From: an uncultured Gemmatimonadales bacterium
Lineage (GTDB): Bacteria > Gemmatimonadota > Gemmatimonadetes > Gemmatimonadales > GWC2-71-9
Direction: 5' to 3'
DNA: 64,000 bases
Assembly: GCA_963748815.1 (NCBI GenBank)
Contig: CAVVKJ010000005.1
Span: 320,001-384,000, forward strand
Numbering within the stretch: the first letter of the stretch is position 1; the number at the start of each line of letters is the position of its first letter. Positions 448 to 31,433 of this stretch are shown here, piece after piece. The notes below the pieces were generated by a model that did not search any database, had not been told where the DNA came from, and saw only the letters and a program-made list of their open reading frames with translations. Both the position numbers and the translations under genes were made by a program.

Positions 448-3400
448 ATGAAGCAAAGTTGTGTGAGCGCCTTCACCCGTGCGGCGCGGTACCTCGCGCT
501 GACGGCAGTCGTTCTGGCGACGGGAGCCTCGACGCTCTTCGCCCAGGCCGCGACTGGTAAGATTGAAGGCAAGGTGCGCGACCAGCAGGGCGCGCCAATC
601 GCGAACGTGCAGGTCATCATCATCGGTTCGAAGTTCGGCGCGCAGACCAACGCCGACGGCTACTACTTCATCAACCTCGTCCCCGCCGGCAACGTGACGT
701 TGCAGGCCTCCTTCATCGGATACAAGAAGACGCAAATCACCGACCTCCGCGTCCTCTCCGGCCAGACGATCACGGCCGACATCACGATGGAATCGACCCC
801 GGTCGAGGTCCAGGAAATCACGGTCGTCGCGGCCCAGAACGAACTGGTCCCCCGTGACGCGGTCACCACCAAGCAGAACGTCCAGGGCAACTACACCGAG
901 AAGCTGCCGGTGGACCAGATCAACAACGCCCTGGCACTGCAGCCGGGCGTCGTGGCCAGCACGGGTGGCACCACGCTTTCCATCCGCGGCGGCCGGACCG
1001 ACGAGCAGGCCGTGTACGTCGACGGCGTTCCGGTCGGCGCGGGCAACCGCGGCGGCGGCTTCGTCACCGGCGGCGGCAACTCGATCTCCATCGGCACCAA
1101 CGGCTTCGAAGACGCCTCCGTCACGACGGGCGCCGGTTCGGCGGCCTTCGGCGGCGCCCAGTCGGGCATCATCTCGATCTCGACCCGGACCGGTGGCGAC
1201 AAGTTCACCGGCGCGGTCGGCTTCGAGTCCGACGGGCTCTTCGGCAACAGCGTGAGCCTCGGCTTCAACCGGATCACCGCCAGCCTCGGCGGCCCGATCG
1301 TCAACAACCTCTCCTTCTTCGTCAGCGGCGTGCTCGCCGGCGCTGCCAGCGCCGGGACCGGCCAGGACCGCGCCAACTCGCCGTACTTCACGGTGGCGGG
1401 CGTGGACACGGTCGTCGCGGTGCCGGACAGCAAGGGGAACGCCGTACTCCGACACGACGTATGTCACCGTCGACCAGTACGCCGTGTACACCGGCAAGTG
1501 CGACGAGACCATGACGTACGCCGGCATCAACATCCAGAACAGCACCAACCCCGACATCGCCAACAACTACGGGGTCGACTGCCAGGGCATCCAGCTGCCG
1601 GGTACCGCCAATTCGCAGTACCAGCTGCAGGGCAAGCTCAACTACACGTACGGCACCGGTTCGCGCATCTTCCTCAGCGCGAACGCGAGCCAGGCGCAGG
1701 GGCGGAACTTCACCTACGCCAACCTGTACAACCCGCAGCAGATCTTCGGCAACACCGGCACCAACCAGGTCTACACCCTCGGGTGGACGCAGAACCTGGC
1801 CAAGTCGTCGGCGCGGGCGCTGGCGCTCGACGTCTCCCTCTCGTACCAGACGGACGAGTTCATCACCTCGCCGCTGACCCGGGAGTCGGAAGTCGACAGC
1901 CGGAACCCGTGGGGCGGCTTCATGATCTCGCCGCTCAAGTACCAGTTCAACTTCGACAACTTCCCGCTGAACCAGGAGTTGATGGACAACTTCCAGCAGA
2001 ACAAGGCGAACAGCCGGCGCTCTCCGTACGACCTGGAGAACACCGCGCAGTACAGCCTGGTCGACAAGTGGCGGAACAACGCCTACGGCCTCATCGGCTT
2101 CACCGAAGCCGGCGGCCCGACCGGCCGGCTGACCATGAACCAGGAAAACCGGTTCATCGGCGCGGCGGCCCTCGACTGGCAGGTGGACCGCTACAACCGC
2201 CTCAAGATCGGTGGCGGCTACACCGGGTATCGACATCACCTCGTACTCGTCGTCCATGACCAGCCAGGCGTTCTCCGACTTCTACATGGAGAAGCCGACG
2301 TCCTAGACCGGCTACGCGGAAGACCGCCTCGACCTCGGCGACGTGGTCCTCGTGGCGGGCATCCGGTACGACTACTACAACAGCAACGCGTCGCACCCGC
2401 AGTACTGCGACTCGACGGGCTCGTGCCAGCCGACCGTCCGGATTTCGAGCAACCCGCTCTGGGATCCGAACGATGTCCAGGCCTCGCTCGACACCATCTA
2501 CACGCCGGACCAGTCGCACGACTACATCTCGCCGCACATCCAGGTGGCGTTCCCGGTGAGCGACCGGACCAACATGCGCTTCTCCTACGCGCACCAGGTC
2601 CAGCCGCCGGACTTCTCGCTGGTCCTCGGCGGCATCAACACCGACCTCGCCGTGACGAACACCAACCACGTCTACGGGTCGGACCTGGACTTCGGGACCA
2701 CGATCAGCTTCGAGTTCGGCATCCGGCACGCCTTCTCGGACGACTTCGTGCTCGACTTCTCGGCGTACAACCGCGACGCGCAGGCCAACCAGGCCGGCCG
2801 CCTGCTCTCGTTGTACGACCCGCTCAAGCAGCAGAACCAGGACATCCGGATGATGACGAACGCGGACTTCGGCAACTACCGCGGCTTCGACGTCCGGCTC
2901 GACAAGCGGATCGGCAGCCTCTTCAACGGCACGCTGGCGTACTCCTTCAGCGACGCCAAGAACACCGGCTCGGATCCGTTCACGTACATCAACTTCGGCT
3001 CGCGCATCGTGAACCAGATCTCCGGCGGTAACGATCCGCCGCCGTCGGCCTACCTGCCGACGACCTACACCCGGCCGCACAACCTGGCCGGTTCGTTCTC
3101 GATGACGTTCCCGAATGGCTGGCACTCGGGCTCGACCAGCGGCGCCATCCTCCAGAACGTGGGCATCTTCGCCACCTTCCGGGTGGCCAGCGGCACCGCC
3201 TACACCCGCTGCCCGGTGGAAACCGGCAACGAGTCGGTCATCTCCCCCGGCGTCTGCGCCCGGCAGTTCGAGGGCGACGTCAACGGCTCGCGCCTCCCGA
3301 CCTTCCGGAATACCGACCTCCGGGTCACCAAGGGCTTCCGGTTCGGCGGCGTGGACCTCACCGGGTACGTCGACGTCCGGAACCTCTTCAACTTCACCAA

Positions 3401-3770
3401 CACCACGCAGGTGTTCGCCGAGAACAACAGCATCACGAACACCGTTGAGCTCGAGGAGACCTGGACCGGCGACTCGTCCGGGTACGCGAAGGAAGCCATC
3501 GCGTCGGGCAGCTACGACGCGGAGAACGGCGACATGTTCCTGCCGACGCCCTCGGGCTGCGGCAACTGGGTGACGCAGGACGGCAAGGCCGCCGCGCCGA
3601 ACTGCGTGTACCTGGTCCGCGCCGAAGAGCGTTTCGGCAACGGCGACGGCGTGTTCAGCCTCTCCGAGCAGCGTCGGGCGTCGGAAGCCCTGTACTACGC
3701 GGGCCGCAGCGAGGCGAACTTCACCGCCGCGCCACGACGGATCCGGCTTGGGTTGGAGCTCAATTTCTAG
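448..3770 (+). CDS. TonB-dependent receptor with N-terminal carboxypeptidase-regulatory-like domain (frameshifts ~1450 and ~2230, in-frame TAG at 2304)
   Basis: Signal peptide ...STLFA-Q; GKIEGKVRDQQGAPIANVQV; plug LQPGVV...SIRGGRTDEQAVYVDGVPV; barrel strands AGIRYDY and ISPHIQVAFPVSDRT; C-terminal RIRLGLELNF; pieced from ORFs 388-2259, 1484-3031 and 2343-3770. Confidence 0.9.
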
Positions 3771-3860
3771 CGTGATCGATCCACGGCGGGAGGGGGGCCG
3801 GCGCGCCGAACGGCGCCGTCCCCCGTCCAGCCGAACAGTATCCATCTGAGAGAGGATGCA

Positions 3861-6800
3861 ATGCACTCACCATTCCGTAAGAGGGGCGTCATCCTGGCGG
3901 GCCTGCTGGCGCTGGCGCTCGCGGCGGCTTTGCCGTCGAACGCCATGGCCAAGCCGGAACCGGGGGCCAAGAAGTCGGCCAAGGGATTCCGGCTCTTCGC
4001 CCGTCCCCTGGGCGCCATGACGATCAACCGCGTCTACTGCGGTCTGTCGTCCGACGGCCAGATCTGCGTCGACTCCACCAACTCCTCCACCGTCGGTGGC
4101 GGGTACTGGCCCAAGGGCACGGCGGACCAGTACATCTTCAACACCGGCCTGCAGCTGGCCGGCGTCGTTTCCCCGCTGGACGGCGGCCCCTGGGCCGGCG
4201 ACACCACGGGCGCGTTCTTCTTCGATCCGAAGGGGACCACCCAGCACGGCACCCAGGTGGAGCCGATCTACAACACGTCGAACAGCAGCCGACCTCGACG
4301 ACCTGCCGCTGGCCGGCTACGTCCCCTTCGGCGACGCCACGGCCGACCTGTACAACCCGCTCCTGACCGGCACCGCCACGGACCGGAAGAAGCAGGCGTC
4401 ACAGGGCGACGTCTGGTGGATGTCGTGGGACGGCGACCCGGCGCTCAACGCCGGCCGCAAGCACCCGCTCGGCATCGTCGTCGAGACCCGCGGCATGGGG
4501 TGGAACTTCCCCACCGGCAACGAAGACATCATCTACTTCGTCTACACCTTCTACAACGTCACCACGACGAACCCGGCCGACTACGTCAACATCCGGCCGG
4601 AAATGCAGGCGATCCTGCTCGACAAGGCGGCGGAGTTCCAGGCCAAGAACAACGCGACGTTCAACGTGACCCTGCCGACCGGCGGGTACACGATCGACGA
4701 CCTGTACGCGGCGTTCGCGACCGACATGGACGTGGCCTCGGCCGGCACGAACTACTCCAGCGTCAACCTGCCGTTCGCCCTGGGCTATACCTACGTCCAG
4801 AGCTTCGCGGGTGAAGTCTCCTGGACCTTCGACCCGAACATCTTCTCGGCGCCCTTCATGTTCGGCGCCGGCTTCGCGGGGGTCAAGTACCTGAAGAGCC
4901 CCACCGGTCCGGGCGAAATCCAGCTCTTCTCCAACACGGTCAACGGCTCCCCCTTCCCGGGCGCCTTCAACGACCCGCAGAACACCATCCAGCTCTGGCG
5001 CTACCTCTCGGGCAACATCTCGGTGCCCGCCGGCGACCAGCCCTGCAACACCGGCGATCCGTCGTCCAGCCGCATCTGCTGGATCAACAACACCCAGCCG
5101 GCTGACATGCGCTTCTTCCAGTCCTCCAGCGGCTTCTCGCTGCCGCCGGGCGGCCAGGGTTCGATCGTCGTGGCGTACATCTTCGCCGCCCCGGTGGCGG
5201 CGGGCGGTTGCCCCGCCCCCGGCCCGACCTGCGGCGGCGGCAACGTGAAGCCCGGCAACCCAACGCTGCTCGGCAGCCCGGCGGGCATGACCGGCGGCGT
5301 CAACCTGGTGGACAGCATCACCGGGTACATCTCGGCGACCGACCTCGACCTCAGCGGCGAGTACGAGCAGGAAGGCACCGCCGGTCCGGAGTGGACCGTG
5401 GTTCCCGGCTCGCTCCTCGGCAAGTCCTACACGGCCCAGGCCGTGTTCGACGCGAAGTTCCTGCTGCCGTTCGCGCCGGACCCGCCGAAGTTCTTCCTGA
5501 TCCCGAGCAACAACCAGGTCACGGTGGTCTGGCAGGCGTCGCCGTCGGAAGCCAACGGCGACCCGTACTACGCCATCGCCTCCGATCCGAGCAGCGCGCT
5601 CTACGACCCGAACTATCGGCAGTACGACGTCGAAGGGTACCGGATCTATCGTGGCCGGGTGGACAGCCCGGACGAGATGGCGCTCATTGCCCAGTTCGAC
5701 TTTTCGGGCACCATCTTCAACGACTATGACGGCGTCATCAACTACGTGGACGGCTGCGCTCCCGAACTGGAACATCTACCTCGACTGCCCGGTCGCCTGT
5801 CCATCGACCCGGTCGTCCCCGGTCAGCCGCGCACGGTGGCCAACCCGAACCCGATCGTCAGCCCGTTCATCGAGACGAAGTTCGGCAACCGGCTGGCGCT
5901 GGCGAGCGGGCTGTCCATCACCACCAAGGCGGACACGGTCGTCACCGGCGGCAACTCCGGGCTTCCGCCGCTTCGCGACACCGGCATCCCGTACATCTAC
6001 GTGGACAACGGCGTCCGCAACAACTTCCGGTACTTCTACGTGGTCACGGCGTTCGACGTGAACTCGTGGACGTCCGGCCCGACCAGCCTCGAGTCGCCCG
6101 AAGGCGGGGACCGCGTCGGTCATTCCGCAGGCGCTGGCGTCCAACCTCGTGCAGACCGGCACCCTCACGCCGGGCATGTTCGGGCGGCCCAGCGCCGAGG
6201 AGCCGGGCGGAACCAACCAGAGCCTCGTCTTCCCCAAGACGCCCGGGCTCAACACCAACGGCACCTTCACCGGGCCCTTCCCGCCGGCCACGGTTCAGCT
6301 CGGCTTCGTCGGGTTCGCGAGCCAGGTGGTCGGCGCCTCCGGGGCGCTCTCCGCGAAGCTCGACAGCCTCCAGGTCGGCGACGTCGACCTGACCGGCTGC
6401 TGCGGCGGCGGTCAGCCCGGTAAGCCGGCGGTGTACTACTTCACGATGTCCAACGGGTCGGACCCGGCATTCCAGATCGCGGTCCCGCTCCAGCAGGACC
6501 TCGGCGTACGATGTGTCGACCGACGTGTACTTCGCCGGTCCGGCCATCGACGGCTCCCTCGCCTCGCTCTACGGCGGCGACGGAACCTACGGCACCCTCA
6601 GCGCGCTCTTCACCCCGACCATCACCGCGGGCCCGATTGCCGCGGACTGGGGACTCGGGTCGGCGCTCAATGAACCGTTCCTCGCGCCGTCGGAGTTCCC
6701 GACCGGCGTGACCGGCGTCAACTACAACGGCTGGCGCTGGTTCGACGGCCCCTCGCCGACGACCAACGAGACCATGGCCGATCCGATCGGCGGTTCCTGC

Positions 6801-7895
6801 GGCACCGGAGCCACCGGCACGACGGCCTGCGCCAGCCAACGGCACCACGTCGTTCGCGAACGCCGGCCAGCTGACCGGGGTCACCACGGTCTACCAGCCG
6901 ATGTCGTACAACATGTACAACCGTGAATGGCGCAACGTGGCCGAATACCCAGTCGAGCGCCATTCGCGCCGCCGACTTCAACGTCTACTGGGGTGCGGCC
7001 GGCGTCGTCGACTCGATCATCGACGTCACCCACAACGTTGAGGTCCCCTTCCAGACCACCGCCGGTGGCGGCTGGGGCATCCTGAACACCTCCGACCAGG
7101 GGGCGGGCGGCTTCGACAACCGGCCGACCGTGCTGACTCCGACCGACTGGACCTGCGTGGATCCATTGCGCACCCAGGCGCCGGGCAGCGGCGCGGGCAC
7201 ATTCTTCCCGTGTGCCGCCGCCGCAGGCTTCGTCCTGAGCAACACGGCGGAGCTCGGCGCCATCGCCTTCGGTTCAGGCAATGCGCAGTCGGCCACGGCC
7301 ACCAAGTCGGACCGCAACCCGGCCAACATCGAGGCCGAGGGCGGCTTCTACATCTGGATCGCCGGCACCATCAGCGGCTTCACAATGCCGTCGCTGCCGG
7401 CGGCCGGCACGGTCTGGGCCCTCCGGAGCTACACCGGCGTCATCTACGGTGGCAACGGCGTGGCGCAGTCCGGCAATCGCGGTCCCTACTCGTTCGTGGC
7501 GGCCACCCGGCCGTTCACTGCGGTGGGCGCCACGATGGGCGTGCGAATACGACGTGGTCAACGACTTCAACGTCGCTGCGTCGAACCTGGATCTCTCGAC
7601 GATCCACACGGTGCCGGATCCGTACTACGTCACCAACGCCTACGAGGTGGACTACACCTCGAAGGTCATCAAGTTCGTGAACCTTCCGCTGCAGGCGACG
7701 ATCCGCATCTACTCGTCGAGCGGGATCCTGGTCCGGGTCCTCAATTACGAGGCCTCTCAGAACGGCGGCATGCTGGACTGGAACGTCCGGAACCGGAACA
7801 ACCAGGTCGTTGCAAGCGGTGTGTACTTCTATCACGTCGAATCGGGCAGTGCGCGCCACATCGGGCGCATGACGATCGTCAACTTCGCCAAGTAG
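3861..7895 (+). CDS. Large secreted protein (~1,340 aa, several frameshifts) with FN3-like module and C-terminal T9SS type-A/FlgD-Ig-like sorting domain
   Basis: Signal peptide ...SNAMA-K; PPKFFLIPSNNQVTVVWQ, DVEGYRIYRG, YVDNGVRNNFRYFYVVTAFD; C-terminus IHTVPDPY...IKFVNLPLQATIRIYSSSGILVRVL...LDWNVRNRNNQVVASGVYFYHVE; ORFs 3861, 4096, 6149, 6513, 6923 and 7281 join by frameshifts. Confidence 0.8.
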
Positions 7896-7906
7896 CCACG
7901 CCGGGG

Positions 7907-7929
7907 GTGGGGGGAACATTTCCCCCCAC
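7907..7929 (+). other. Intra-operon stem-loop between the cargo gene and porV
   Basis: GTGGGGGGAA-CAT-TTCCCCCCAC perfect 10-bp stem, no U-tract. Confidence 0.6.
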
Positions 7930-7956
7930 ATCCCGCATCCAGGAGACAGAATACTT

Positions 7957-9078
7957 ATGAAGCGGCACACTGCGCATGGGTTGGCCCTGGCGGCGCTGCT
8001 GGTGGGCGGGTTGCCCGTGGCCCTCGCGGCCCAGGCATCCGAGATCAACGCGGACAACACGCCATACGGCACGACGTCGGGAGAATTTCTTCTCCTCGGC
8101 GCCAGCGCCCGCGGCGCCGCGCTCGGCAACGCCTTCCAGGCCATCGCCAACGACGTCTCGGCCCTCTATTACAATCCCGCCGGCATCGCCATGATGGAAC
8201 GCCCGGGAGCGCTCGTCAGCACGTACTCGTACGTCGCCAGCACCCGGTACAGCTGGGGCGGTTTGGCCTTTCCGTTCTCGGGCGGCGCCCGGGCGGTCGG
8301 CCTCCACCTCGGCACCTTCGGGTTCAAGGACCAGCCGGAATACACGGTGGACCTCCCCGACGGCACCGGCGGCACCTACTCCGTGAGCGAGTCCTACCTC
8401 GGCCTCACCTACGCGGAGAACTTCTCGGACCGCTTCTCGGCCGGCATCACCGCCAAGGGCGTCTTCGACCAGCTGGGTGAAGTGAGCGGGAGCGCGTTCG
8501 CGGTCGACTTCGGCACCAATTTCCACTCGGCGCTGAACAACCACCCGATCAAGTTCTCCTTCGTCATCCAGAACCTCGGCACCAACCTGAGCTACAGCGG
8601 CGACGCGCTCAACGTCGGCGTCCCCCGGGACCCGGCCGAAGGCGAAGAGGCCGTGCCGAGCAACCCGCAGCCGGGTTCGTACCGCACCAAGGCGTTCTCG
8701 CTGCCGACCACCTTCACCGTGGCCGTGGCGTACGACATCATCGCCAAGGAAAGCACCCGCTGGACGCTGCTCGCCGACTTCAACCAGCCGAACAACACGG
8801 GCCCCGGCTACGTGTTCGGCACGGAGTTCGGCTTCCCGCAGATGGGCGGCAGCAACTTCAACGGGTCGGTCCGCGCCAGCTACAGCTACGCCTCGGCCAA
8901 CTCCGGTCAGGACGTCTCGGGCAGCCAGCTCAACGAAGAGCAGAGCTACCAGGGCTCCGCCGTCGGCGGCGGCCTGAGCTACACGACCGAAACGTTCAAT
9001 CTCGGGTTCGACTATGCCTGGAAGTACATGGGCATTCTCGGCTCGACCAATTTCTTCACGTTCAGCATCGGCTGGTAA
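7957..9078 (+). CDS. porV: PorV/PorQ-family outer-membrane beta-barrel (FadL-like fold)
   Basis: Signal peptide ...ALAA-Q; family motif FLLLGASARGAALGNAFQAIANDVSALYYNPAGIA; FAVDFG; QNLG; C-terminal aromatic strand FTFSIGW. Confidence 0.8.
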   Translation: MKRHTAHGLALAALLVGGLPVALAAQASEINADNTPYGTTSGEFLLLGASARGAALGNAFQAIANDVSALYYNPAGIAMMERPGALVSTYSYVASTRYSWGGLAFPFSGGARAVGLHLGTFGFKDQPEYTVDLPDGTGGTYSVSESYLGLTYAENFSDRFSAGITAKGVFDQLGEVSGSAFAVDFGTNFHSALNNHPIKFSFVIQNLGTNLSYSGDALNVGVPRDPAEGEEAVPSNPQPGSYRTKAFSLPTTFTVAVAYDIIAKESTRWTLLADFNQPNNTGPGYVFGTEFGFPQMGGSNFNGSVRASYSYASANSGQDVSGSQLNEEQSYQGSAVGGGLSYTTETFNLGFDYAWKYMGILGSTNFFTFSIGW

Positions 9079-9127
9079 CGGCGCGATGCGACGGCAGCGG
9101 CTCCGGCCGCTGCCGCCCAGGAGCACA

Positions 9128-10567: not shown

Positions 10568-10651
10568 ACGATTGGTTCATTTCAAGGGAGTTTCACTGCA
10601 GGACGCCGGAAAGAGCCGCTTTCCACCGTCTTCCGAGAACGAGGTACAAGT

Positions 10652-12375: not shown

Positions 12376-12396
12376 GATGGTAGTGGGAGACTGGGC

Positions 12397-12432: not shown

Positions 12433-12462
12433 GCCGTCCTCCGGCGAGCCCCGGCTCGCGCG

Positions 12463-21300: not shown

Positions 21301-21558
21301 CAGAAGAACATCCCGACCTTCAACGGCCAGGTGATGGTCCTGTCGCTGGACGTCTTCAACCTGCTCAACATGATCGACAAGGACTGGGGTCTCGTGAAGA
21401 CGACCAGCGCCTTCGAAGGCCAGAGCCTGGTCCAGCTTCGCGGCTGGGACCCGCTCTACAACCGCGGCATCTACAGCAACGCCTTCCCCATCCTCAACCG
21501 GGTCGATCCGATCGCTTCCGTCTGGCGCATTCAGCTGGGCGGCAAGTACATCTGGTAA
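18342..21558 (+). CDS. TonB-dependent receptor, Oar-like, with carboxypeptidase-regulatory-like domain (frameshift ~20310)
   Basis: Signal ...NLFA-Q; GQNNRFNSIQIDGGVNNDLFGL; EFQVLIAPFDVRQGNFAGGLVNAVTKSG; WSPRIGFNWD; C-terminal WRIQLGGKYIW. Confidence 0.92.
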
Positions 21559-21581
21559 CGAGGACTGGCTCTACCGCATGA

Positions 21582-21617
21582 CGACACGGCCCCCGGGATG
21601 TCCCGGGGGCCGTGTCG
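21582..21617. terminator. Long hairpin between convergent TBDR2 and lptG
   Basis: CGACACGGCCCCCGGGA-TG-TCCCGGGGGCCGTGTCG, 17-bp perfect inverted repeat. Confidence 0.7.
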
Positions 21618-21640
21618 CGTTGGGGAGGTTCAGGCCCCAG

Positions 21641-21691
21641 CGGGTGCGGACGGTAGGGGCACGACGCGTCGTGCCCCTACGTCCGCACCCG
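21641..21691. repeat. GTAG-type REP-like palindrome overlapping the lptG 3' end
   Basis: Core GTAGGGGCACGACGCGTCGTGCCCCTAC (21653-21680) is a perfect palindrome, extended by CGGGTGCGGAC / GTCCGCACCCG. Confidence 0.7.
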
Positions 21692-22762
21692 TTTCAGCAG
21701 CACCAGGGCCGCGCCCAGGAACAGGACGTTGGGCGCCCACGCCGCCACCAGCGGGTCGATGATCCCGCCGTTGCCCACCGCCTTGGCGAGGTTGATGATC
21801 AGCAGGAACAGCACCGTCGTCGCCAGGCTGATGGCGATGCCGTAGGCCGCCCCGGCGCGCGGGGAGCTCAGGCTCAGCGGCGCGCCGAAGAGCGCGATGA
21901 TGAGGCAGGTCACCGGCACTGCGATCTTGAGCGCCCGCTCGACCCGCAGCTTGTTCACGTCGTTGCCGGAGCGCCGCAGCCCCTCGATGTACTCCCCGAG
22001 CTCCCGGTACCGCATCTCCGCCGGGGCCTTCGAGGCGGCCAGCAGCTGGCTCGGCGTCTGGGAGAGGGCGCGGAGCCGCATTTCCTGCGCGGTGAACATC
22101 GGCTGGCTCAGCCCGCCGTAGATGACCCGGCTCGAGGCGCCCCAGATGCGCCAGACGGAGGCGGTGCTGTCATACGTGGCGCTGTCCGCGCTGACCGAGA
22201 GGTACGGATAGCTCGTGCCGTTGCCCTGGCGGAGGAAGACGGGCTCCCGGAGCACCTGGTTGACCACGTCGAGGGTGCGGATGGTGTACACCCAGTTGGC
22301 GTCGGCGCCGTACACGAAGTTGTAGCGGTAGGCGGTCCGGGTGCGCGACGACCGGGACTTCTGGAGCTCCAGCGACTTGCTGGACGCCGCCACCGAGATC
22401 TCCCCCACCGCGAAGGCCAGCACGGCGGCCGCCGCCGCCGCCCCGAAGACGGGGCGGGCCAGCCGGTGAAAACTCATCCCCCCCGCCTGCGCCGCCACGA
22501 TCTCCGAGTTCCGGCTCATCGTCCCCAGCGTGAACACGGTCGCGAAAAAGACCGAGGCGGGCATCACCATTGCGATCTCTTCCGGCAGCACGTACACGTA
22601 GCTCTGCAGGATTTCCGTGACGGTCAACCCGTTGCTGAGCAGCCGCCGCATGTTGTCGGTGATCTTGATGAGCACCGACACCACCGGAAACCCGAAGGCG
22701 GTGAGCACGAAGATCCGGATCCAGGAGCGCAGGATGTACCGGTCGAGGAGGCCGATGCCCAT
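21677..22762 (-). CDS. lptG: LPS export ABC permease LptG
   Basis: LDRYILRSW, TLGTMSRNSEIVAAQAGGMS, PAEMRYREL, AAWAPNVLF; TGATG coupling to lptF. Confidence 0.88.
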   Translation of the reverse strand: MGIGLLDRYILRSWIRIFVLTAFGFPVVSVLIKITDNMRRLLSNGLTVTEILQSYVYVLPEEIAMVMPASVFFATVFTLGTMSRNSEIVAAQAGGMSFHRLARPVFGAAAAAAVLAFAVGEISVAASSKSLELQKSRSSRTRTAYRYNFVYGADANWVYTIRTLDVVNQVLREPVFLRQGNGTSYPYLSVSADSATYDSTASVWRIWGASSRVIYGGLSQPMFTAQEMRLRALSQTPSQLLAASKAPAEMRYRELGEYIEGLRRSGNDVNKLRVERALKIAVPVTCLIIALFGAPLSLSSPRAGAAYGIAISLATTVLFLLIINLAKAVGNGGIIDPLVAAWAPNVLFLGAALVLLKRVRT

Positions 22763-24396
22763 CACCGTCGCCTCCACCGCGCCACCCGGCGCCGCAGCAT
22801 GTCCGTCAGCTCCGCGAGGTCGCCGCCGCGGGTCGAGCCGAGCTCCCGGTTGACCCGGAGGAGCCCCACGACGCCGAGGAGGGTGAAGATCACGTTGGGG
22901 GCCCACATCACCACGGCGGGCGGGAGGATGCCCGCGTCGGCCAGCGGTTCCCCGGCGGTGAGGCTGATGTAATAGAGGGCGAAAATGCCGAGCCCCCCGC
23001 CGAGGACCAGCCCCATTCCGCCGCGAGGAAACCGGAGCGCCAGCGGGATGCCGACCAGGACGAAGACCATGCAGGCCACCGTGATCGCGTACTTCTTGTG
23101 GACCTCGACGAGGAAGCCGTCGGCGGTCCGCCGGGCGGACTTGATGCCCTCCACGGTGGTGGCCACGTCGATCCACGACGAGAGGGTCACCTCGCGGGGC
23201 TCCCCACCCGCCGGCTCGACGCCGGCGCTGGGACGCCCCGTGGCCTCCGCCGGCGCGGGGAGAGAGTCCATGCTTCCGGTCTCGAGCTTTCGCCTGAGCG
23301 CCTCCCGCTTCCAGAGCGGCACCTCCTGCTCCTGGAACCGGGGGTTCCTCGGCGGGGGCCGCTGCCCCGGCTTGGCGCCCCCCGGCCGCTGTGCGGGGTC
23401 CTGGGCCTCGGCCGTCACCGGAAGGAGCCGCCCGCCGAGGGACCTGAACCATCGGCACCACGGCGCACCCGCGGCCCGCCCGCTGTCCGGGGTCGCCTCC
23501 GGAGCGGGGGGCAGTCCGAGCAGCGCCCGCAGGTCCGTCTCCAGTCGCTCGGCGCGGGCCTCGGTGAAGGACCGCATGGCCGCGGCGGTGTCCCCCACGA
23601 TGTCGAGCATCTCGCAGGTCGTCATTTCCCGGTCGCTCTTCGGCACGTCCCCTTCGGTGCGCGTCAGGGTGTTGCCGACGCTCCGGACCCGCATGGTGTT
23701 GACGGTGAAGTAGGTGAGCTGCAGGAGCCCCGGTTCCGTCCCCTTGAACTGCATGATCGAGCCGTCGTACAGGGTCAGGTAGAGGTCGTTCTGGTTCGCC
23801 TCGAAGCCCATCCGGCCGCTGTCGGCGTAGATGACCTGGCGCCCCTGCGTCCCCGACATGTCGAAGATCGTCACGTCGCGGAGGCGCCCGTCGGCCGGCT
23901 CGATCCGGCCCGCCCGGAGGAAAAGCTCGGAGGGGGGGACCTCGTTCAGCGCCTGCTCCCGGAACTCGACCGTCGGTCGCTTGCGGCCAATGTCGAACAG
24001 CAGCGCCTTGAGCCGCAGGTTGGCCGCGGGGAGGCCCTGGTCGACGAAGACGAAGTCGGCGGCGGTCAGCAGCAGCGCCGCCAGGAACACCGGCCGCAGC
24101 AGCTGCCCGATGGAGATGCCGCTGGCCCGCATGGCGGTGATCTCGTTCCCCGAGGCCAGCGTGGTGAAGGCGTACAGCACGGCGAGGAGCACCGCCATCG
24201 GCAGCGTCATGGCCACGATGAAGGGGAGGCTGAGGAGGAAGACTTCGCCGATCAGGCTCCAGGGCAGCCCCTTGCCGACCAGCGCGCCGAACCGCTTGGC
24301 GATCTGATTCAGCAGCATGATGCTGGTCAGCGCCGCCACCGCAAACACGAACGGGGCCGCCAGCTGCCGGAGGACGTACCGGCTCAGCAGGCGCAC
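22762..24396 (-). CDS. lptF: LPS export ABC permease LptF with a long periplasmic insertion
   Basis: LLSRYVLRQ, LPMAVLLAVL, NEITAMRASGISI, VEVHKKYAI, MWAPNVI; ~544 aa. Confidence 0.88.
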   Translation of the reverse strand: MRLLSRYVLRQLAAPFVFAVAALTSIMLLNQIAKRFGALVGKGLPWSLIGEVFLLSLPFIVAMTLPMAVLLAVLYAFTTLASGNEITAMRASGISIGQLLRPVFLAALLLTAADFVFVDQGLPAANLRLKALLFDIGRKRPTVEFREQALNEVPPSELFLRAGRIEPADGRLRDVTIFDMSGTQGRQVIYADSGRMGFEANQNDLYLTLYDGSIMQFKGTEPGLLQLTYFTVNTMRVRSVGNTLTRTEGDVPKSDREMTTCEMLDIVGDTAAAMRSFTEARAERLETDLRALLGLPPAPEATPDSGRAAGAPWCRWFRSLGGRLLPVTAEAQDPAQRPGGAKPGQRPPPRNPRFQEQEVPLWKREALRRKLETGSMDSLPAPAEATGRPSAGVEPAGGEPREVTLSSWIDVATTVEGIKSARRTADGFLVEVHKKYAITVACMVFVLVGIPLALRFPRGGMGLVLGGGLGIFALYYISLTAGEPLADAGILPPAVVMWAPNVIFTLLGVVGLLRVNRELGSTRGGDLAELTDMLRRRVARWRRR

Positions 24397-24484
24397 GGGG
24401 GGCCCGGACGGTTGAACGACATTTTTTCGGGCGCTATATTGCCGAGGTTCCTCACCACTCTCGCCTCTCATCTCCCGGACACGC

Positions 24485-27400
24485 GTGGCCCGTCTTGCCG
24501 TTGCTCTCGGGTGCCTGCTGTTGCTGCTGCCCGCCGTCGCGTCCGCCCAGGACGAGCCGGGGGCCATCGGCGTCGGCGCGACCTTCAATCTACCGCTCCC
24601 GGCGCTCCGGCAACCGCCCCAGGCGCGGGCGGCCTGGCTGGGGGCGCCCAGCGTCACGCCGGCCCAGGCGGGGGCACGGTGGCAGGCGCAGCTGGATCAT
24701 CGGCTCGACCGCGAGCGGGCGGCGTCGAGCTCCGCCACGCTCATGGCCGCGCTCTACGGGACCAACAACCTGCAGGTCCAGTACATCGACGCTTCGCTGG
24801 AGGAGCGCAAGAGCATCCTCGGGATCCCGTCAAAATACGCCGATTTGCGCATCGACGGCTCGGTCTTCCTGGAGGTGCGCACCGACCGTCTCCGGAACCT
24901 GACCTGTACCCCGGCGCAGTTGCTGGACCAGAACTCCGGCTGCCGGGGCGGGTTCAAGGCCCCCCGGCTCGACAACGAGTTCAACGCCAAGGTCGGCGGC
25001 CTGATCGGCAGCCGGCTCCACCTGAACGTCGACTACGACTCCCGCCGGGAGTTCAACGCGAACAACGACATCCAGGTCTACTACCAGGGGCTGCAGGACG
25101 AAATCCTGCAACGGGTCGAGGTCGGCACCGTGTCGTTCCGGACCCCGGCCTCCCGCTTCCTGACCGCCGCCATCCCCGCCAACAATTTCGGCCTCAACGC
25201 CACCTTCGAGTTCGGCGCCGTGACGCTGCAGGCCATGATGGCGACGCAGGAGGGCAGCGTCGTCGGCCAGCGCGTCTACACCGTCGGCTCCACCACCAGC
25301 GAGCCCCAGGATCGGCTGGTGCGCGACCTCGACTTCGAGACGGGGCGGTTCTTCTGGGCGGTCGACCCCGCGACGCTCCCGAACTACCCCTTCGTGGACA
25401 TCCTCAACCTCGACGCGGTGGCCATTCCCGCGGCGGTGCAGCCCGCGGACGCGCAGGTCCGCGTCTATCGCTACCGCACCGGCGCCGGGAGCGGGCTCAA
25501 CCCCAACCTGGGCGGCATCACCGCCATCGGGTTCCGGCCGGACGGCCCCGAGCGGGTCGAGGGCACCTGGCAACTGCTGCTCCAGGGAGAGGACTACTAC
25601 CTCGACCCCTCCGCCACCTGGTTTGCGCTGGCCACCAAGCTGGACCAGAACGACTATCTCGCCGTCAGCTACATCACCGTCACCGGCACCCAGGTCGGGA
25701 CCTTTCCGGCCGGCGAGAACCCGGCGGTCACCGACAGCGTCCTGCTCGTGTCCATCCCGTTGCAGGGACCCACGCAGCAGACCTTCCGGCACGAGATGCG
25801 CCAGGTCTACCGGGTCTCGGGCACCGACCTCGAGCGGCCCTCGCTCAAGGTCACCGTCACGCTGAACCAGTCCGAGCGTCCCTCGAACGACGAAGCGCAG
25901 ACGTACCTCGCCTTCTTCGGGCTGGCCATCCCGCCCGACCCGCACATCTTCGACGTCGACAACCGGGTCTTCCCCCGGGTCCGCGATCCGGGCGCGGATC
26001 TCGTCCTGCGCGAGTCGTACATCGCCTATCCCTCGCTCAAGCCGTTCATCGACCCGCGGCTGCAGCCGAACGAACGGGCCGATTCGGTCTACAACTCGCC
26101 GGTGTACCTGCTCCTGACGCCGCAGGGCCCGCCGTCGCGCTTCCAGATGCGGTTGGAATACAACGCCGCCGGCGGGACCGATCCCGGCAGCCTGAACCTC
26201 AACGCCCTGCAAATCCGCCGCGGCTCGGAGCAGTTGATCGCGGGCGGCCGGGTGCTCGAGCGCGGCGTGGACTACGAGATCAACTACGATCTTGGCCAGG
26301 TCACCTTCAACAGCCCCGCCACCCTCTTCCCCTCGGGCGTCGGCACCGTCACGGCGCGGTTCGAGGAGCGGGGCATCTTTGCCGTGGCGCCGACCTCGAT
26401 CCTCGGCGGGACGCTGAGCTACTCGCTGGGCGACGTGGGGTCGGTCAACCTGATCGGGATGTACCAGAAGGAGCAGTCGGTGTTCACCCGGCCGACCCTC
26501 GGGTTCGAGCCGACCTCCAACCTGCTCACCGGCGTCACGACCGACCTTCGGTTCCAGGTGGACGGCGTCAGTCGGTTCTTCAACAAGCTCACGTCGCAAA
26601 GCGTGACCGCCCCCTCCGTCCTCGACATCCGGGCCGAATACGGCACCACCCATCCCGACCCGAACATCATCGGGCAGGCGTACCTCGAGGACTTCGAGGG
26701 GGAGTCGGCCATTCCGGTCTCGCTCCTCACCTCGCGCTGGGACTACGGCAGCGTGCCGCAGTCGTCCGCGGGGGTGGAGAGCCTCGGGTTTGCCACCGGC
26801 TTCGACTCGCTCTGGGCGGTCCAGCTCTCCTGGCAGAACCTGATCCCGGCCTGCTCCGGCTGCCCCCCGGTCGAGCTCTACCCGCAGGACATCGACCCGA
26901 CCATCCGGACCAACGGCCAGGGGAGCCTCAACGAGACGGTCTTGTACATGACCTTCCACGCCGACACCGCCGGCGGGATGGTGCAGCAGAACAACCGTTC
27001 GCTGTGGACCCAGCCGGACCGGCCGTTCACGCCCCGCTGGCGCTCGATGGTGACGCCGCTCTCCCAGACCGGCATCGACCTCTCCCGGGCGGAATACCTC
27101 GAGTTCTGGGTCTTCCAGGGCGGGGAAAAGACGGTCGACTCGGCGGGGATGCAGCTGGTCGTGGACCTCGGCTCGGTCAGCGAGGACGCGCTTGCGGTGG
27201 CCCCGGACAGCCTGACGGTGGTGGGGTCGGACAGCCTCTACACCGGCCGGCACTACACCGGCGTCGGCCTCCTCAACACCGAGCGGCAGTCCACCGGCAT
27301 CTTCAACGCCTCCACCGACGACATCGGCATCCTGCTCGACCGGGTCGACTCCCTCTTCGTCAACGGCGCGGTGCAGTCCGAGGTCCAGACCTGCGCCCAG

Positions 27401-30400
27401 GTCCTCTCCGAGACGGTGTCGATCTACCCCTGGGGCGACCTGAGCAGCCGGTGCTCCAACGGCAACGGCTTTCTCGACACGGAGGACCTGAACGGCGACA
27501 ACCGCCTGAACGCGCAGGGCTCCAACGACAACGTGCTGCGATGGATCATCCAGCCCAACGATCTCTCCCAGTACTACGTGCGCACCGGCGCGACCTACAC
27601 CAACACGCAGGGGCAGACGTCGACCTGGACGCTCTACCGGATCCCGATGCGGATTCCCGACGCGACGATCGGCACGCCGAACCTGCGACTCGTCCAGAAC
27701 ATGCGGGTGACGCTCGTCGCCCCCGACACGCCGGAGCCGGACGTCGTCGCGCGCTTCGCGCTGGCGCGGATGCGCTTCACCGGCGCGCCCTGGGTGCGCC
27801 GGGCCGATACGCCGCTCATCGGCATCGGCGGGTCGGTGGCGAGCCCCACCGGGACGATGTTCGCCGCGGTCATCTCGACGGAGGACATCGCGCTCGGGTA
27901 TGACCTCCCCGCCCGGGCGTGGTGAACGAGCCGGCCCAGAACAACAACGGCCAGGCCGTGCAGGGGGTCCAGATCAACGAGAAGTCGCTCCGGGTCGTCG
28001 CCACGTCGCTCGACGTCGGCGAACGCGCCGAGGCGTACCAGCGCTTCCCCTCCGGCCCCCAGAACGTGCTCAAGTACCAGCAGGTGCAGGTCTGGTTCCG
28101 CGGCCGCGGCGCCGGGTGGGAGAGCGGGGACCTCAACGCCTACTTCAAGATCGGCAGCGACGACCAGAACTGGTACATGTTCATCCGGCCCGCCAGCAGC
28201 ACCGTCTGGGTGCCGGAGGCGGTGATCAGCATTCCCGTCTGGCGGCAGCTCCGCGCGCAAATCGAGCAGCGGTGGCTGCAGGGGCTGCCGCCCAGCGGGG
28301 CCGTCGAGTGCGGCATCGGCGATCCCGCGGCCTACGTCGCCTGCGACGGACCCTACGTGGTGCAGGTGGCCGATCCCGGCGTCAATCCGCCCAACCTCGC
28401 CGCCGCCCAGGAGATGGCCGCGGGCATCTACCGCGTCGCCGACACCGAGGTGCTGACCACGGTCGAGCTCTGGGTCGACGACATCCGGCTCGACGATCCG
28501 GTGACGGAGTCCGGTGCGTCCATGGCGTTCGACGCGCGGCTCGCGGCGGCGGATGTGGCGGACTTCTCGGTCAACTACGTGCGGCAGGACGGCCTCTTCC
28601 AGCAGATCGGGCGGGACCCGACCTACCGCACCACCGGCGCGCTCGTCCTCGGCACCAACCTCCGGGTGGACCGGTTCCTTCCGGCCTCCTTCGGGGTCGC
28701 CGTCCCGTTCTCGATCAGCCACACCTACACCTCCGCCGATCCGATCCTCATCGGCGGCACCGACATCCTCGCCGCCGACATCGAGAACCTGCGCCAGCCG
28801 TCCAGTGGACTGACGCAGGTCAACTTCGGCATCCGCCGGACCCGAAAGGGCACCAACGCTCTCCAGCGAGGGTTGGTCGACCCGCTGACCTTCACCGGCT
28901 CGTTCACCTCCGGGCAGAGCCAGACGGAGCTCTCCTCGGGGACGACCTCCGCCAGTCTCTTCAACCTCACCTACAACCTGTTCCTGCCCAGGACCGGACC
29001 GGCGGTTTCGCTGGGCGGGGCCGTGGACGCGCTGCCAGGCTGGGTGGGGAGGAGCGAGGGGCTGACGGCCGCCCGAACGACGCAGTTCGGGCTGGCGCCG
29101 ACCGGGATTCGACTAGGCAGCCAACTGGCGCGCACGGAGAGCGACTTCACCGGCTACCTCGTCCCGGTGCTCCGCCCCGGCGACGCCGCCCTGCAGCCGG
29201 CGGTGTCCCTCACCAACCTCTGGCGCAACAGCGCCGGTGTCACCTGGCAGCCAGTCGGGATGCTCACCTTCAGCGCCGACCTCGCGAGCACCCGGGATCT
29301 CCGGGATTACGACGACACCACCTCGATCGGCCGCCTTACCGATGCCTCCCGGAAGGAATTCCTCGGCATCGACGTGGGGGTGGAGCGCGACCGGACGCTG
29401 GGGACCGCCATCAACCTCAGCCCACGCCTGACCTCCTGGCTGCGGGGGCGATTCATCACGACGAGCAACTTCGTGCTTTCCCGGAGCCTGACCAGCCGGG
29501 CCCCGATCCAGGAATACGGCGACAGCGGGATCTACATCCTTCCCCAGACGCTGAACAACCTCCGGTCACGCGAATTCGGCTTCACGATCGACGCGCCCCG
29601 TGGCTTCAAGCAGCTGTTCAAGGACTCGAGCGCCGCCACCCGCGCCCTGCTCGGACTCCGGGTGCTGGACTTCGTCTACCGGACCTCGCGCGCCTCGACC
29701 TACGACCTCGCCACCTTCAATCCCGATCTCCGGTACATGCTCGCCCGCGGGAGCACCTCGGACTTCCTGACCCAGGACGGCGATTCGGCGCTTAACGTCG
29801 TCGAGACCACGACGATCACCGTTGGCGGCGGTGCCGATCTGCCGTACGGCATCACCGCCGGGCTGCAGTACTCCTCCTCGGAGATCGACCGGTACGCCCG
29901 CGCCAGCAACGGCTACCTCCTCTCCGAGATCACCCAGAAGGAATGGCCCATCTTCCAGGCGCGGTGGACCCAGACGGTCAAGCAGGGACTGCTCTCCGTG
30001 GTGAGCCTCTCCACCAACATCCGGAAGCGTTCCGGGCAGACGGTGCTCCCCTCCTCCACCGTCAGCGCCGTGTCCCTCAACGAGACCTCCACCTGGACCA
30101 ATGACCTCCAGCTCACCTTTCGCCAGGGCATCAGCCTCACCCTCGGCTATGGGGTCTCCAGCAACGAGCGCCAGAGCAACGGCACCACCACCCTCGGCGA
30201 CGGCACCGACATCACCGCCAACCTGATTTACCTCTTCCGGCTTCCCGGCAGCCTCAGCAGCGCACGCAAGCAGATGCGGGTCTCGATCAACGCGCTGTCC
30301 AGCAAGGCGGAGACCTGCCTGGAACTGCCAGGGAACCCGAACTGCACCGGGATTTCCGACATCCGCCGGAAGACGCTGCGCGCCGGCGTCGACACCGACA

Positions 30401-30531
30401 TCCTGAGCATCCTGACCGGCGGCTTCCAGGCGGCCTACGTCATCAACGACGTCCGCCAGCTCAACCGGAAAACCGAGCAGCTCACGCTCAGCCTGACCTT
30501 CCAGCTCTCCCTCTTTTCCGGAGATTATTGA
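24485..30531 (+). CDS. sprA: SprA/Sov-like T9SS outer-membrane translocon (~2,015 aa, frameshift ~27915)
   Basis: Signal ...AVASA-Q; SprA-like motifs LHLNVDYDSRREF, YYQGLQDEILQRVEVGTVSF, GSEQLIAGGRVLERGVDYEINYDLGQV, AYLEDFEG, DTEDLNGD, WTLYRIP; amphipathic beta-rich C-terminal third. Confidence 0.85.
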
Positions 30532-31433
30532 TGCAGTTCTCTCGCGGGCCGGCCCTCGCGGCCGTCCTGATGCTCGCCTGCGCCGGCCCGAAGCCCTCCC
30601 GTCCGTTCGACGGTGCGGCGGCGTTTCGCGCGGTGGAGGTGCAAGTGGGGTTCGGGCCCAGGATTCCCGGCGAGCCGGGGCATCGGGCCGAGGCGGCGTG
30701 GCTCGACAGCCTGCTGGCGGGGCTCGCCGATACCGTCATCGTGCAGCGCTGGACCCACCGGACCGCGCGCGGCGACTCGCTCCCCCTCGTCAATTTCGTC
30801 GCCCGCTTCAATCCGTCGGCGGGGGAACGGATCCTCTTCCTGGCCCACTGGGACACCCGGCCGATCGCCGACCAGGCCAAGGGTCCCGACAGCCTGCTCC
30901 CCGTGCCCGGGGCCAACGACGGCGCCTCCGGCACCGCCGTCCTCCTCGGCGTCGCGGCCGCGCTCCGCGCGGCGCCGCCGTCGGTCGGCGTGGACCTCCT
31001 CTTCGTCGATGGAGAGGACTACGGCGTCTTCGACGACAAGGTGGACGTGCTGCTTGGCTCCCGGTATTACGCGGCCAACCCCGCGCCCGGCTCGCCGCCG
31101 CTCTACGCCGTGCTCTTCGACATGGTCGGCGACCGAGACCTGCAGATCTACCAGGAGGGCAACTCGGTCACCGGCGCCCCCGAGGTGGTGGACCTGGTCT
31201 GGCAGGTGGCGCGGAAGGCAGGCCACGGCAATGTCTTCATCCCCTCCCTCCGGTACACCCTCACCGACGACCACCTGTCGCTGCAGGCCAAGGGGATCCG
31301 GGCCATCGATGTGGTGGACTTCGACTATCCGTACTGGCACACGCCGCAGGACACCCCGGACAAGGTGAGCGCGCAGAGCCTGCAGGCGGTCGGCGAAGTG
31401 GCGCTGGCCCTGGTGGCAAACTCCGAACGCTGA
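30531..31433 (+). CDS. M28-family zinc enzyme lipoprotein, probably glutaminyl-peptide cyclotransferase
   Basis: Lipobox MLA-C; FGPRIPG; AHWDTRP; GANDGASG; DGEDYG; DMVGD; DDH; YWHT..DT; ATG overlaps the sprA TGA. Confidence 0.8.
   Translation: MQFSRGPALAAVLMLACAGPKPSRPFDGAAAFRAVEVQVGFGPRIPGEPGHRAEAAWLDSLLAGLADTVIVQRWTHRTARGDSLPLVNFVARFNPSAGERILFLAHWDTRPIADQAKGPDSLLPVPGANDGASGTAVLLGVAAALRAAPPSVGVDLLFVDGEDYGVFDDKVDVLLGSRYYAANPAPGSPPLYAVLFDMVGDRDLQIYQEGNSVTGAPEVVDLVWQVARKAGHGNVFIPSLRYTLTDDHLSLQAKGIRAIDVVDFDYPYWHTPQDTPDKVSAQSLQAVGEVALALVANSER

Follow-up and report, generated by a model that had tools for sequence, protein, structure and literature searches.

The locus described here raises the question of whether a SprA-type pore can bring cargo to the cell surface without the motor of the known type 9 secretion systems (T9SS); to our knowledge, in every type 9 system studied the extraction of cargo from SprA depends on the proton-driven GldLM motor. 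The locus lies in a window of 64,000 nucleotides, the whole stretch of DNA analysed, from an uncultured Gemmatimonadales bacterium whose genome is about 86% complete and rich in indels. On balance, and by a modest measure, we favour the reading that it encodes a T9SS outer-membrane core, lacking a recognisable motor, ring or sortase, which exports one cargo on the cargo's own PorV-family carrier and holds it at the surface.

Layout of the locus

The initial annotation had named a SprA homologue, a PorV-family barrel, a large secreted protein with a C-terminal sorting domain (CTD) and a glutaminyl cyclase-like M28 gene, and all four are present in the window among the following features:

448..3770, plus strand: TonB-dependent receptor of about 1110 aa, first gene of the cassette, with Plug and CarboxypepD_reg domains; breaks near 1440 and 2231
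3861..7895, plus strand: CTD cargo, about 1320 aa in intact relatives; several indels
7581..7892, plus strand: C-terminal sorting domain of the cassette subtype (VPDPY ... GRMTIV), placed by TIGR04183 and alignment; its predicted partner is the product of the next gene
7957..9078, plus strand: PorV-family carrier barrel, cassette paralogue; NF033709 133.4 bits (cut-off 90)
9086..10567, plus strand: GWxTD-domain protein (TIGR04514), neighbour of the cassette
10652..11800 (end approximate), plus strand: Ig-rich lipoprotein; breaks at 11481 and 11577
21680..24396, minus strand: lptF and lptG, divergent from sprA throughout the phylum; context genes, retained upon sprA loss
24485..30531, plus strand: SprA/Sov translocon of about 2014 aa; single indel break near 27900-27916
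30528..31433, plus strand: glutaminyl cyclase-like M28 lipoprotein, PF04389 117 bits; downstream neighbour of sprA

The four named genes are not a single operon: cassette and sprA stand about 15 kb apart, with unrelated genes in between. The M28 gene does adjoin sprA, as had been claimed, but the two are not fused, the M28 start only overlapping the sprA stop codon. The host is placed outside the Bacteroidota, as proposed, all 71 close sprA loci being assigned to Gemmatimonadales, Gemmatimonadaceae, Gemmatimonadetes or Gemmatimonadota; a SprA system outside Bacteroidota is nevertheless not new as such, SprA having already been described in print as FCB-specific. Comparisons across the phylum used 151 Gemmatimonadota genomes, 136 from the host's class and 15 from sister classes, of which 120 were SprA-positive (above the family cut-off) and 31 SprA-negative.

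The SprA translocon

The assignment of 24485-30531 to SprA is borne out by family scores and by fold. The part at 24485-27925 scored 347.9 bits against TIGR04189 (cut-off 200), 27919-30531 gave 88 bits on the following part of the model, and the SprA of an intact relative reached 450.2 (cut-off 200); the match to PDB 6h3i_A had an E-value of 2.3e-25. Canonical SprA is a 36-strand barrel with a lateral opening. The C-half model, covering the C-terminal 870 aa only (pLDDT 87.8), has about 25 long antiparallel strands, and in a fold search its top matches were all SprA (8gl8_A, E 1.7e-28, TM 0.53), the best non-SprA match reaching only E 6.6e-7. Compared with the three best-matching relatives, the window has two surplus bases near 27900-27916, and in the closest relatives sprA is a single ORF of 2014 aa with 87-91% identity; the split is likely a sequencing indel.

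A receptor-cargo-carrier cassette

The cassette consists, in order, of the TonB-dependent receptor, the CTD cargo and a PorV paralogue, an arrangement that also occurs on a Rhodothermus marinus plasmid. The receptor, left unnamed in the initial annotation, belongs to the system: it leads the cassette in every locus whose retrieved stretch extends that far, and it shares 88-89% identity with an intact copy in the same genus. It scored 50.2 bits against the SusC model TIGR04056 (cut-off 368), and a profile search of the cassette neighbours gave no SusD match. Regarding the breaks in these genes, the surplus base at 2231 and the cargo indels at 5769-5804 and 7543 are missing from short-read contigs (among the matches listed), which come from two runs of one study and cover the cassette only, sprA lying outside the covered stretch. 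Pseudogene decay was rejected as an explanation, given these contigs and the intact relatives. Pieces of every cassette gene are matched by RNA-library contigs from one study, and a relative's contig covers the CTD and porV; neither is proof of transcription.

The cargo comprises a signal peptide, a beta-supersandwich domain, an Fn3-like part, a variable beta-rich domain and the CTD. In a fold comparison chiefly covering model residues up to 495, its N-half resembled the non-catalytic domains of GH15, GH116 and GH94 enzymes (Z 17.3, rmsd 3.4, 252 aligned); the catalytic helical barrel was not present in the cargo model, and Foldseek gave weak matches only. Within the genus the N-half is 82-92% identical and the C-half only 35-45%, a pattern that would be expected of an exposed surface. 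The type-A CTD-like end claimed for this protein is upheld marginally, 7521-7892 scoring 23.4 against TIGR04183 (cut-off 23) and falling under the Pfam cut-offs of FlgD_ig, CHU_C and Por_Secre_tail. At the position of the Lys conserved in type A CTDs, this CTD and most same-family copies have Arg, and distant cassette copies have Lys. The host genome encodes only one other CTD protein, which is payload-free (TIGR04183 25.1, cut-off 23).

The product of 7957-9078 is a PorV-family barrel, as annotated, its NF033709 score being joined by a match to 6h3i_F (E 2.9e-5). The role of general type-A shuttle assigned to it is not sustained: it scored 44.7 bits on the PorV equivalog model NF033710 (cut-off 250), and in a quick tree the cassette PorV clade is separate from PorU-adjacent PorV. 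The era locus of the host genome has no porV. A PorV paralogue of its own accompanies every copy of the cassette, and genomes of one sister family have 11-14 matches each. A second PorV-like gene in the host (C10:1109060-1109929) scored 42.7 bits (cut-off 90) on a long branch of the quick tree. Structure prediction suggests that the cassette PorV binds the CTD of its own cargo: the modelled complex had an ipSAE of 0.88 (best of three controls 0.00), with contacts agreeing by at least 82% between runs and partner pLDDT of at least 80, a mark that 116 of 157 solved complexes attained, as did 2 of 215 mismatched pairs; a similar complex is already solved (8GL6 and kin), so that the pass may reflect memorisation by the predictor.

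Among the neighbours, the GWxTD gene is still found in five SprA-negative loci without the cassette and is probably not a dedicated part, since it is kept, at least partly, after cassette loss. The Ig-rich lipoprotein (49% identity within the genus) accompanies 13 of 14 same-family cassette loci and is absent from the five SprA-negative loci that hold GWxTD, three of which have no room for it; it is a candidate accessory surface partner.

Distribution and joint loss

SprA, PorV-family carrier and CTD cargo are lost together, which supports this part of what had been proposed. Matches to the PorV family at E<1e-15, a threshold picked after data inspection, occurred in 117 of 120 SprA-positive and 3 of 31 SprA-negative genomes, and one of these three carries part of sprA where a contig ends; with the limit set at E<=1e-3, the numbers were 119/120 and 18/31. 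The cassette CTD was detected in 71/120 SprA-positive and 0/31 SprA-negative genomes. Fisher tests on this co-loss overstate it, because related genomes are not independent. In 19 of 20 retrieved SprA-negative loci (17 genera), lptF/G and the M28 gene are at most 1.8 kb apart and no sprA intervenes. The cassette cargo is not universal in the phylum, as 49 of the 120 SprA-positive genomes do not have the cassette; five of these, examined individually, have retained a general PorV linked to era or to rRNA, and other CTD proteins survive in some of them.

These patterns bear on the possibility that SprA no longer exports large cargo and is a plugged channel or relic, the cassette proteins being periplasmic or otherwise surfaced. 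The loss of sprA in 31 of 151 genomes, the loss of PorU and most canonical cargo in the host's class, the two CTD proteins of the host and the survival of the payload-free CTD protein in 15 of 31 SprA-negative genomes would all agree with it. Against it, sprA ORFs of about 2000 aa (intact ORFs about 1930-2200 aa) are found in 72 loci retrieved from the phylum, the cassette is strictly nested in SprA-positive genomes (71/71), and two modules 15 kb apart are lost jointly while the genes between them remain; we regard a relic as very improbable.

The M28 protein, by contrast with sprA in its distribution, was detected in 24/31 SprA-negative and 12/16 SprA-positive genomes (47 of the 151 searched). 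The gene, fold and motifs annotated as glutaminyl cyclase-like (QC-like) are all present: the solved structures closest to it are glutamine cyclotransferases from Bacteroidota (6qro, E 5e-51; 6qql, E 9e-49), with which the metal and catalytic QC motifs align, and 60 of 73 copies have a lipobox-like site. In the host genome, by a crude pattern, Gln follows signal-like sites in 22% of 171 N-terminal and 2.5% of 2877 internal cases, indirect support for cyclase rather than aminopeptidase activity. It looks like a real glutaminyl cyclase, similar to PgQC (PG2157; PDB 6QQL, 6QRO) in M28 fold, motifs, lipobox and Gln enrichment and distinguished by its place beside sprA. A role as secretion component, also claimed, was ruled out, the gene persisting where sprA is cleanly deleted. 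In P. gingivalis, according to the available text of PMC5837995, T9SS targeting is not controlled by pyroglutamate.

Motor, ring and sortase components

No motor gene or PorU is present in the window, as first noted, and a full gldKLMN/porU set was not found elsewhere in the 86%-complete genome, although the GldL, GldM and GldN models matched no control. Across the 151 genomes, GldL and GldM (TIGR03517, PF22827, E<=0.01) and GldN (profile search) gave no match, as in 14 control genomes; a Parabacteroides record with sprA, tried as a control for the motor models, had no gldM. GldK was not detected above cut-off in any of the 151, and half-length matches in 35 span the FGE-sulfatase half only. 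PorP/SprF (TIGR03519) was weakly matched in two genomes, both from sister classes, and not in the host, and a PorP-like query found no match on plasmids. One weak TIGR03519 match sits behind a weak type-B-like CTD. A TPR cluster matched by the myxobacterial GltE model turned out to be a chemotaxis-type locus.

The sortase has a different history. No C25 protein was found in the host genome and only three weak partial matches among the 136 genomes of its class, while all 15 sister-class genomes have PorU (two were checked, both above the PorU cut-off); its absence is therefore likely a loss in the host's class. Of the suggestion of a reduced or ancestral system, 'reduced' thus fits PorU, and the phylum-wide absence of the motor may be ancestral.

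The same export route could instead be powered by an unrecognised chain, either a diverged GldKLMN or an unrelated inner-membrane motor. In F. johnsoniae, the available text of PMC10994853 reports cargo trapped in the pore once the motor or SprE is removed, so that exit from the pore seems to need force. The motor models that failed in controls, and the incomplete, indel-rich host genome, also leave room for such a chain, and the sister classes, with 15-26 or more canonical CTD proteins plus PorU and no detectable motor, are explained by a hidden energiser no less well than by diffusion. On the other side, models trained on Bacteroidota did detect SprA, PorV and PorU here at high scores; the surroundings of sprA (about 7-10 kb, compared in 20 distant genomes) hold no recurrent motor-like gene, and neither do those of PorV genes; a crude topology scan, a weak test, found no GldL/GldM-like neighbour pair among 1699 called genes; and the partial GldK matches also occur in SprA-negative genomes and in none of six genomes of the host's genus. 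We consider such a chain rather unlikely.

Improbable, in our judgement, is that the pore borrows a general machine, whether TonB-ExbBD via the cassette receptor, Tol-Pal or the PilB/PilT/PilC pilus motor. The constant place of the receptor at the head of the cassette and the presence of comEA-pilB-pilT-pilC downstream of sprA in much of the phylum speak for it. However, no Ton/Tol paralogue is co-distributed with SprA (two ExbB/TolQ genes in the host, 2-4 in the 31 SprA-negative genomes), a count still compatible with a shared motor; the receptor cassette is missing from 49 SprA-positive genomes; and pilB/pilT are not beside sprA in one sister family and remain after sprA deletion, on which ground pilus genes were ruled out as dedicated partners.

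A possible export route

Under the favoured reading, export on a private carrier without a dedicated motor, cargo and carrier, whose sequences both carry signal peptides, would be brought by Sec and BAM to the periplasm and outer membrane. The CTD would then pass into the barrel of SprA, where the cassette PorV would receive it at the lateral opening, a step drawn from the predicted PorV-CTD binding and, for docking, from F. johnsoniae structures. With no PorU, the CTD would remain uncut and the carrier would serve as a single-use anchor, like that of type B cargo with PorP/SprF. The loaded carrier might diffuse out of the pore, its return being prevented by tight binding between carrier and cargo and by capture at the partner transporter; this is the weakest step, plausible but short of probable. 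Fold and gene order suggest that the cargo likely serves the transporter by binding a ligand of glycan type, much as SusD serves SusC, and the pore likely places the cargo on the surface as partner of the upstream TonB-dependent transporter.

Comparison with known systems and implications

The system shares SprA sequence and fold, a PorV-family barrel and signal-peptide-bearing, Ig-like CTD cargo with the T9SS of F. johnsoniae and P. gingivalis (6H3I, 6H3J, 8GL6, 8GL8). It differs in a SprA about 390 aa shorter, in GldK/L/M/N not being found in the 151 genomes, and in a host without PorU, PorP or era-linked general PorV and with only two CTD proteins. The type B CTD/PorP-SprF pairs described in the available text of PMC12618676 likewise have one carrier per cargo, encoded directly after it and likely a lasting anchor; the present locus differs from them in its PorV-family carrier and type-A-like CTD, in the TonB-dependent receptor at the head of the cassette and in lacking a GldK track for attachment. 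A translocon and carrier without motor are also known for Ignavibacterium and Melioribacter, where a one-sentence BLAST result in PMC11705866 gives SprA, PorV and Plug without other components; the available text of that paper holds no analysis of cargo, co-loss or mechanism. The resemblance to SusC/SusD lies in a TonB-dependent receptor with a predicted binding partner at the surface and an Ig-rich lipoprotein encoded after it, but the receptor is not SusC and the partner is a barrel-held CTD protein rather than a lipoprotein. We found no study of a motor-less T9SS in Gemmatimonadota, although published surveys may already contain the point; the available texts of PMC7323717 and PMC5445135 yielded nothing on these phyla.

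SprA, carriers and cargo appear to be selected for jointly across a whole phylum in which no motor could be detected; either an unpowered pore works or an unrecognised energiser is hidden. Having only two cargos makes the host lineage a simple case for testing this. The cassette points to an undescribed uptake complex common to several FCB lineages. A motor-less phylum also suggests that the pore arose first, which challenges the gliding-motor origin inferred in 2025, when, according to the available text of PMC12635249, the T9SS was taken to have begun as part of the gliding machinery. In a bolder reading, possible but somewhat unlikely, SprA and PorV carriers would be an energy-independent surface display older than GldKLMN, the payload-free CTD protein a placeholder for idle pores or carriers, and the cassette a second SusCD-like uptake complex, in which a binding protein of about 140 kDa from an undescribed family is held by a private PorV paralogue beside a TonB-dependent transporter. 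If so, the motor would have been added later, in the Bacteroidota, which would invert the published order.

Two separate modules and the identity of SprA

The window contains a three-gene cassette and, separately, a module around sprA, laid out as follows:

448-3770, TonB-dependent receptor (cassette)
3861-7895, large CTD-ended cargo protein (cassette)
7957-9078, PorV-family barrel (cassette)
24485-30531, sprA, divergent from lptF-lptG and followed by the M28 gene, comEA, pilB, pilT and pilC

Downstream of the cassette are genes for a GWxTD protein and then an Ig-rich lipoprotein. A second TonB-dependent receptor (PF25183; 18345-21558, forward strand), located between cassette and lptG, is patchy among relatives and is kept in SprA-negative genomes. 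The comEA-pilB-pilT-pilC block (31515-36230, forward strand), whose order behind sprA is conserved across classes, probably encodes a type IV pilus for DNA uptake. The 3.16-Mb genome, at 86% completeness, comes from an assembly with many indels. Listed extra bases of the cassette are absent from short-read contigs (two runs, one study), receptor and cargo genes are intact in same-genus copies, and sprA in the closest relatives is a single ORF of 2014 aa (87-91% identity); reading-frame breaks were treated as sequencing errors, for sprA on the basis of relatives only.

The assignment of 24485-30531 to SprA in the initial annotation was confirmed, the product scoring 347.9 bits (450.2 in an intact relative) against a curated cut-off of 200 bits and matching Flavobacterium johnsoniae SprA in the PDB (E 2.3e-25). 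The C-terminal 870 aa gave no PDB sequence match; their model (pLDDT 87.8) has about 25 long antiparallel strands, and its top fold matches are four SprA structures (8gl8_A, E 1.7e-28, TM 0.53). All 71 of 71 close sprA loci are from Gemmatimonadota, in agreement with the proposed host phylum rather than Bacteroidota.

The cassette barrel and CTD proteins

The barrel scores above the PorV/PorQ family cut-off and below the PorV equivalog cut-off. In a quick tree it branches among the cassette copies (clade of 22 rows, support 100), and PorU-adjacent PorV forms a clade apart (6 rows, support 99); hence the earlier PorV assignment stands for the family and not for the PorU-linked general PorV. The latter type persists without porU beside era in some genomes of the class, and is absent from the era locus of the window's genome. 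The receptor-cargo-PorV order recurs across the phylum; one sister family carries numerous copies in each genome, and every copy has a barrel of its own. This order is also found on a Rhodothermus marinus plasmid, whose cargo resembles that of the window at the CTD alone (E 1.8e-13).

The large protein does end in a CTD as claimed, by a margin of 0.4 bits over the TIGR04183 cut-off. Its family has at least 1347 members, some labelled T9SS type A sorting domain protein by NCBI, in which the tail is the sole Pfam domain; atlas look-alikes fall in unnamed Gemmatimonadota and Bacteroidota clusters. The model (pLDDT 90.3) shows an N-terminal beta-supersandwich, resembling non-catalytic domains of GH15, GH116 and GH94 enzymes (Z 17.3, rmsd 3.4, 252 aligned), followed by Fn3-like and beta-rich parts. 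Within the genus, cargo identity is 35-45% in the C-half versus 82-92% in the N-half. The sole other CTD protein of this genome, of 145 aa, has no payload, only a signal peptide and a canonical CTD:

Contig C10, 512737-513171 (locus stretch L217, 7738-8172), reverse strand, payload-free protein with canonical type A CTD, between selB and clpB

This conserved, single-copy protein occurs in 101/105 SprA-positive versus 15/31 SprA-negative genomes of the class, and is thus partly co-lost with SprA; it is possibly a placeholder or signal for the pore. Some genomes of the class have a few further cargos, such as an S8 peptidase with a CTD. A CTD protein beside smc (L256:4538-6802; L255:6902-7966), an S8 peptidase in one genome and peptidase-less in another, is a second cargo where the general PorV is kept.

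Further genes were also observed. An unnamed ~300-aa protein with a weak DUF5683 match, directly behind general porV with or without porU, is conserved across the phylum (L184:1928-2872, L237:9276-10310, L206:2570-3694) and is a candidate further component; it was not found in the window's genome. A highly diverged short PorV-like barrel (C10:1109060-1109929, reverse strand; L218:7064-7930) lies behind a 602-aa lipoprotein-like gene, and weak matches resembling it also occur in SprA-negative genomes. A FadL-like barrel gene with a GDSL-like lipoprotein gene behind it (contig C5, 233279-236070, reverse strand; L220) resembles the BamG/BamH pair as described, though no family model confirmed this.

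Co-distribution with SprA

SprA was detected in 120 of 151 phylum genomes, 149 of which have completeness of 90% or more and contamination of 5% or less. PorV-family matches at E<1e-15, a threshold set post hoc, were present in 117/120 SprA-positive versus 3/31 SprA-negative genomes (119/120 versus 18/31 at E<=1e-3); among the three exceptions, one carries part of sprA at the end of a contig, and in another the neighbouring gene lies at the start of one. The cassette CTD was found in 71/120 SprA-positive and 0/31 SprA-negative genomes; related genomes are not independent, so that such counts overstate the number of events. In 19 (17 genera) of the 20 SprA-negative loci fetched from the 31, lptF/G lies at most 1.8 kb from the M28 gene and sprA is missing between them, and in the five loci reaching GWxTD no cassette gene was detected upstream of it. 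These loci thus indicate joint loss of two modules 15 kb apart, with the intervening genes kept. The cassette is absent from 49 SprA-positive genomes and is thus one of two routes that the class retains.

Neighbours of sprA

The M28 protein appears to be glutaminyl cyclase-like as initially annotated, resembling Bacteroidota glutaminyl cyclase with aligned motifs (6qro, E 5e-51; 6qql, E 9e-49), and 60/73 copies have a lipobox-like site. In a crude whole-genome scan, Gln followed 22% of 171 signal-like sites versus 2.5% of 2877 internal sites, a roughly ninefold enrichment suggesting that this genome, too, follows the Bacteroidota Q-rule; no mention of Gemmatimonadota was found in the accessible part of the Q-rule paper. 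As a proposed component of the system the M28 protein was rejected: its gene does not follow SprA, being present in 24/31 SprA-negative and not found in 4/16 SprA-positive genomes, and it is a neighbour. Pyroglutamate reportedly does not control T9SS targeting in Porphyromonas gingivalis (PMC5837995, in part). The pilus genes and lptFG, retained after sprA loss, were likewise rejected.

Motor and sortase

The initial annotation saw no motor or PorU gene in the window, and the search extended to the whole (86% complete) genome gave no GldK, GldM or C25 match either. Across the phylum, GldM, GldL_N and GldN were each found in 0/151 genomes in searches run without a positive control, by a pipeline that detected diverged SprA, PorV and PorU; GldK was over the cut-off in 0/151, with 35 half-length FGE-domain matches that include SprA-negative genomes.

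C25 proteins are present in 15/15 genomes of the other classes, where the two tested exceed the PorU cut-off and lie beside a PorV gene, and canonical CTD matches number 15-26 or more per genome. In the window's class (136 genomes) there were three weak partial C25 matches in all, and the query for canonical CTDs gave one or two matches per genome. The loss of sortase and most cargo is therefore likely derived, if PorU has the age that its occurrence in Bacteroidota suggests. The motor was found in neither group, so either its absence goes back at least as far as the phylum or its genes are unrecognisable; of the proposed "reduced or ancestral" system, the reduced part is likely right for the sortase and most cargo. 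One sister-class locus (L166:526-3616) encodes a weak type-B-like CTD protein and then a PorP-like barrel that carries a long extension at its C-terminus, again with no detectable motor.

Proposed mechanism

The genes, their co-distribution and their folds are observed, as is the lack of any motor or sortase that could be detected. The CTD is predicted from modelling to bind the barrel. The modelled complex passes the test (0.88, best control 0.00, contact agreement at least 82%, partner pLDDT at least 80), a mark reached by 116/157 solved and 2/215 mismatched pairs; because a like complex has already been solved, this shows likeness rather than binding. Cargo would pass through SprA and keep an uncut CTD, for which the barrel would be a lasting anchor, as in the analogous case of type B carriers (PMC12618676, in part). 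The cargo may then serve as a surface binding partner of the TonB-dependent receptor.

Release would occur without a dedicated motor, which conflicts with the report that F. johnsoniae cargo is trapped once the motor or SprE is removed (PMC10994853, in part); a hidden energiser driving export therefore stays the main rival to motor-free release. ExbB/TolQ copies do not track SprA (two in the window's genome, 2-4 in SprA-negative genomes). A chemotaxis-type cluster (CheA/B/C/D/R/W/Y-like) with TPR and GspIIE-like proteins lies upstream of cell-division genes (C10:574909-595355, reverse strand).

Relation to known systems

In the parts of the literature available, T9SS was confined to Bacteroidetes in an earlier survey (PMC4793230), reviews assign it to the FCB superphylum (PMC9127263; PMC11205867), and it may occur in Gemmatimonadetes too (PMC11285876). 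SprA has been called FCB-specific, with Gemmatimonas aurantiaca among listed representatives (PMC12611786, text and supplement), Ignavibacterium and Melioribacter have PorV, SprA and Plug without other components (PMC11705866), and T9SS was inferred to derive from gliding machinery (PMC12635249). Our search, which covered surveys in part, returned no Gemmatimonadota study on the cassette, the payload-free CTD or a system lacking the motor. The finding is real and partly anticipated in print. The system is not a canonical T9SS, from which it differs in having no detectable motor or sortase; the likeness lies in the outer-membrane half of the canonical system, and it likely works like that half.
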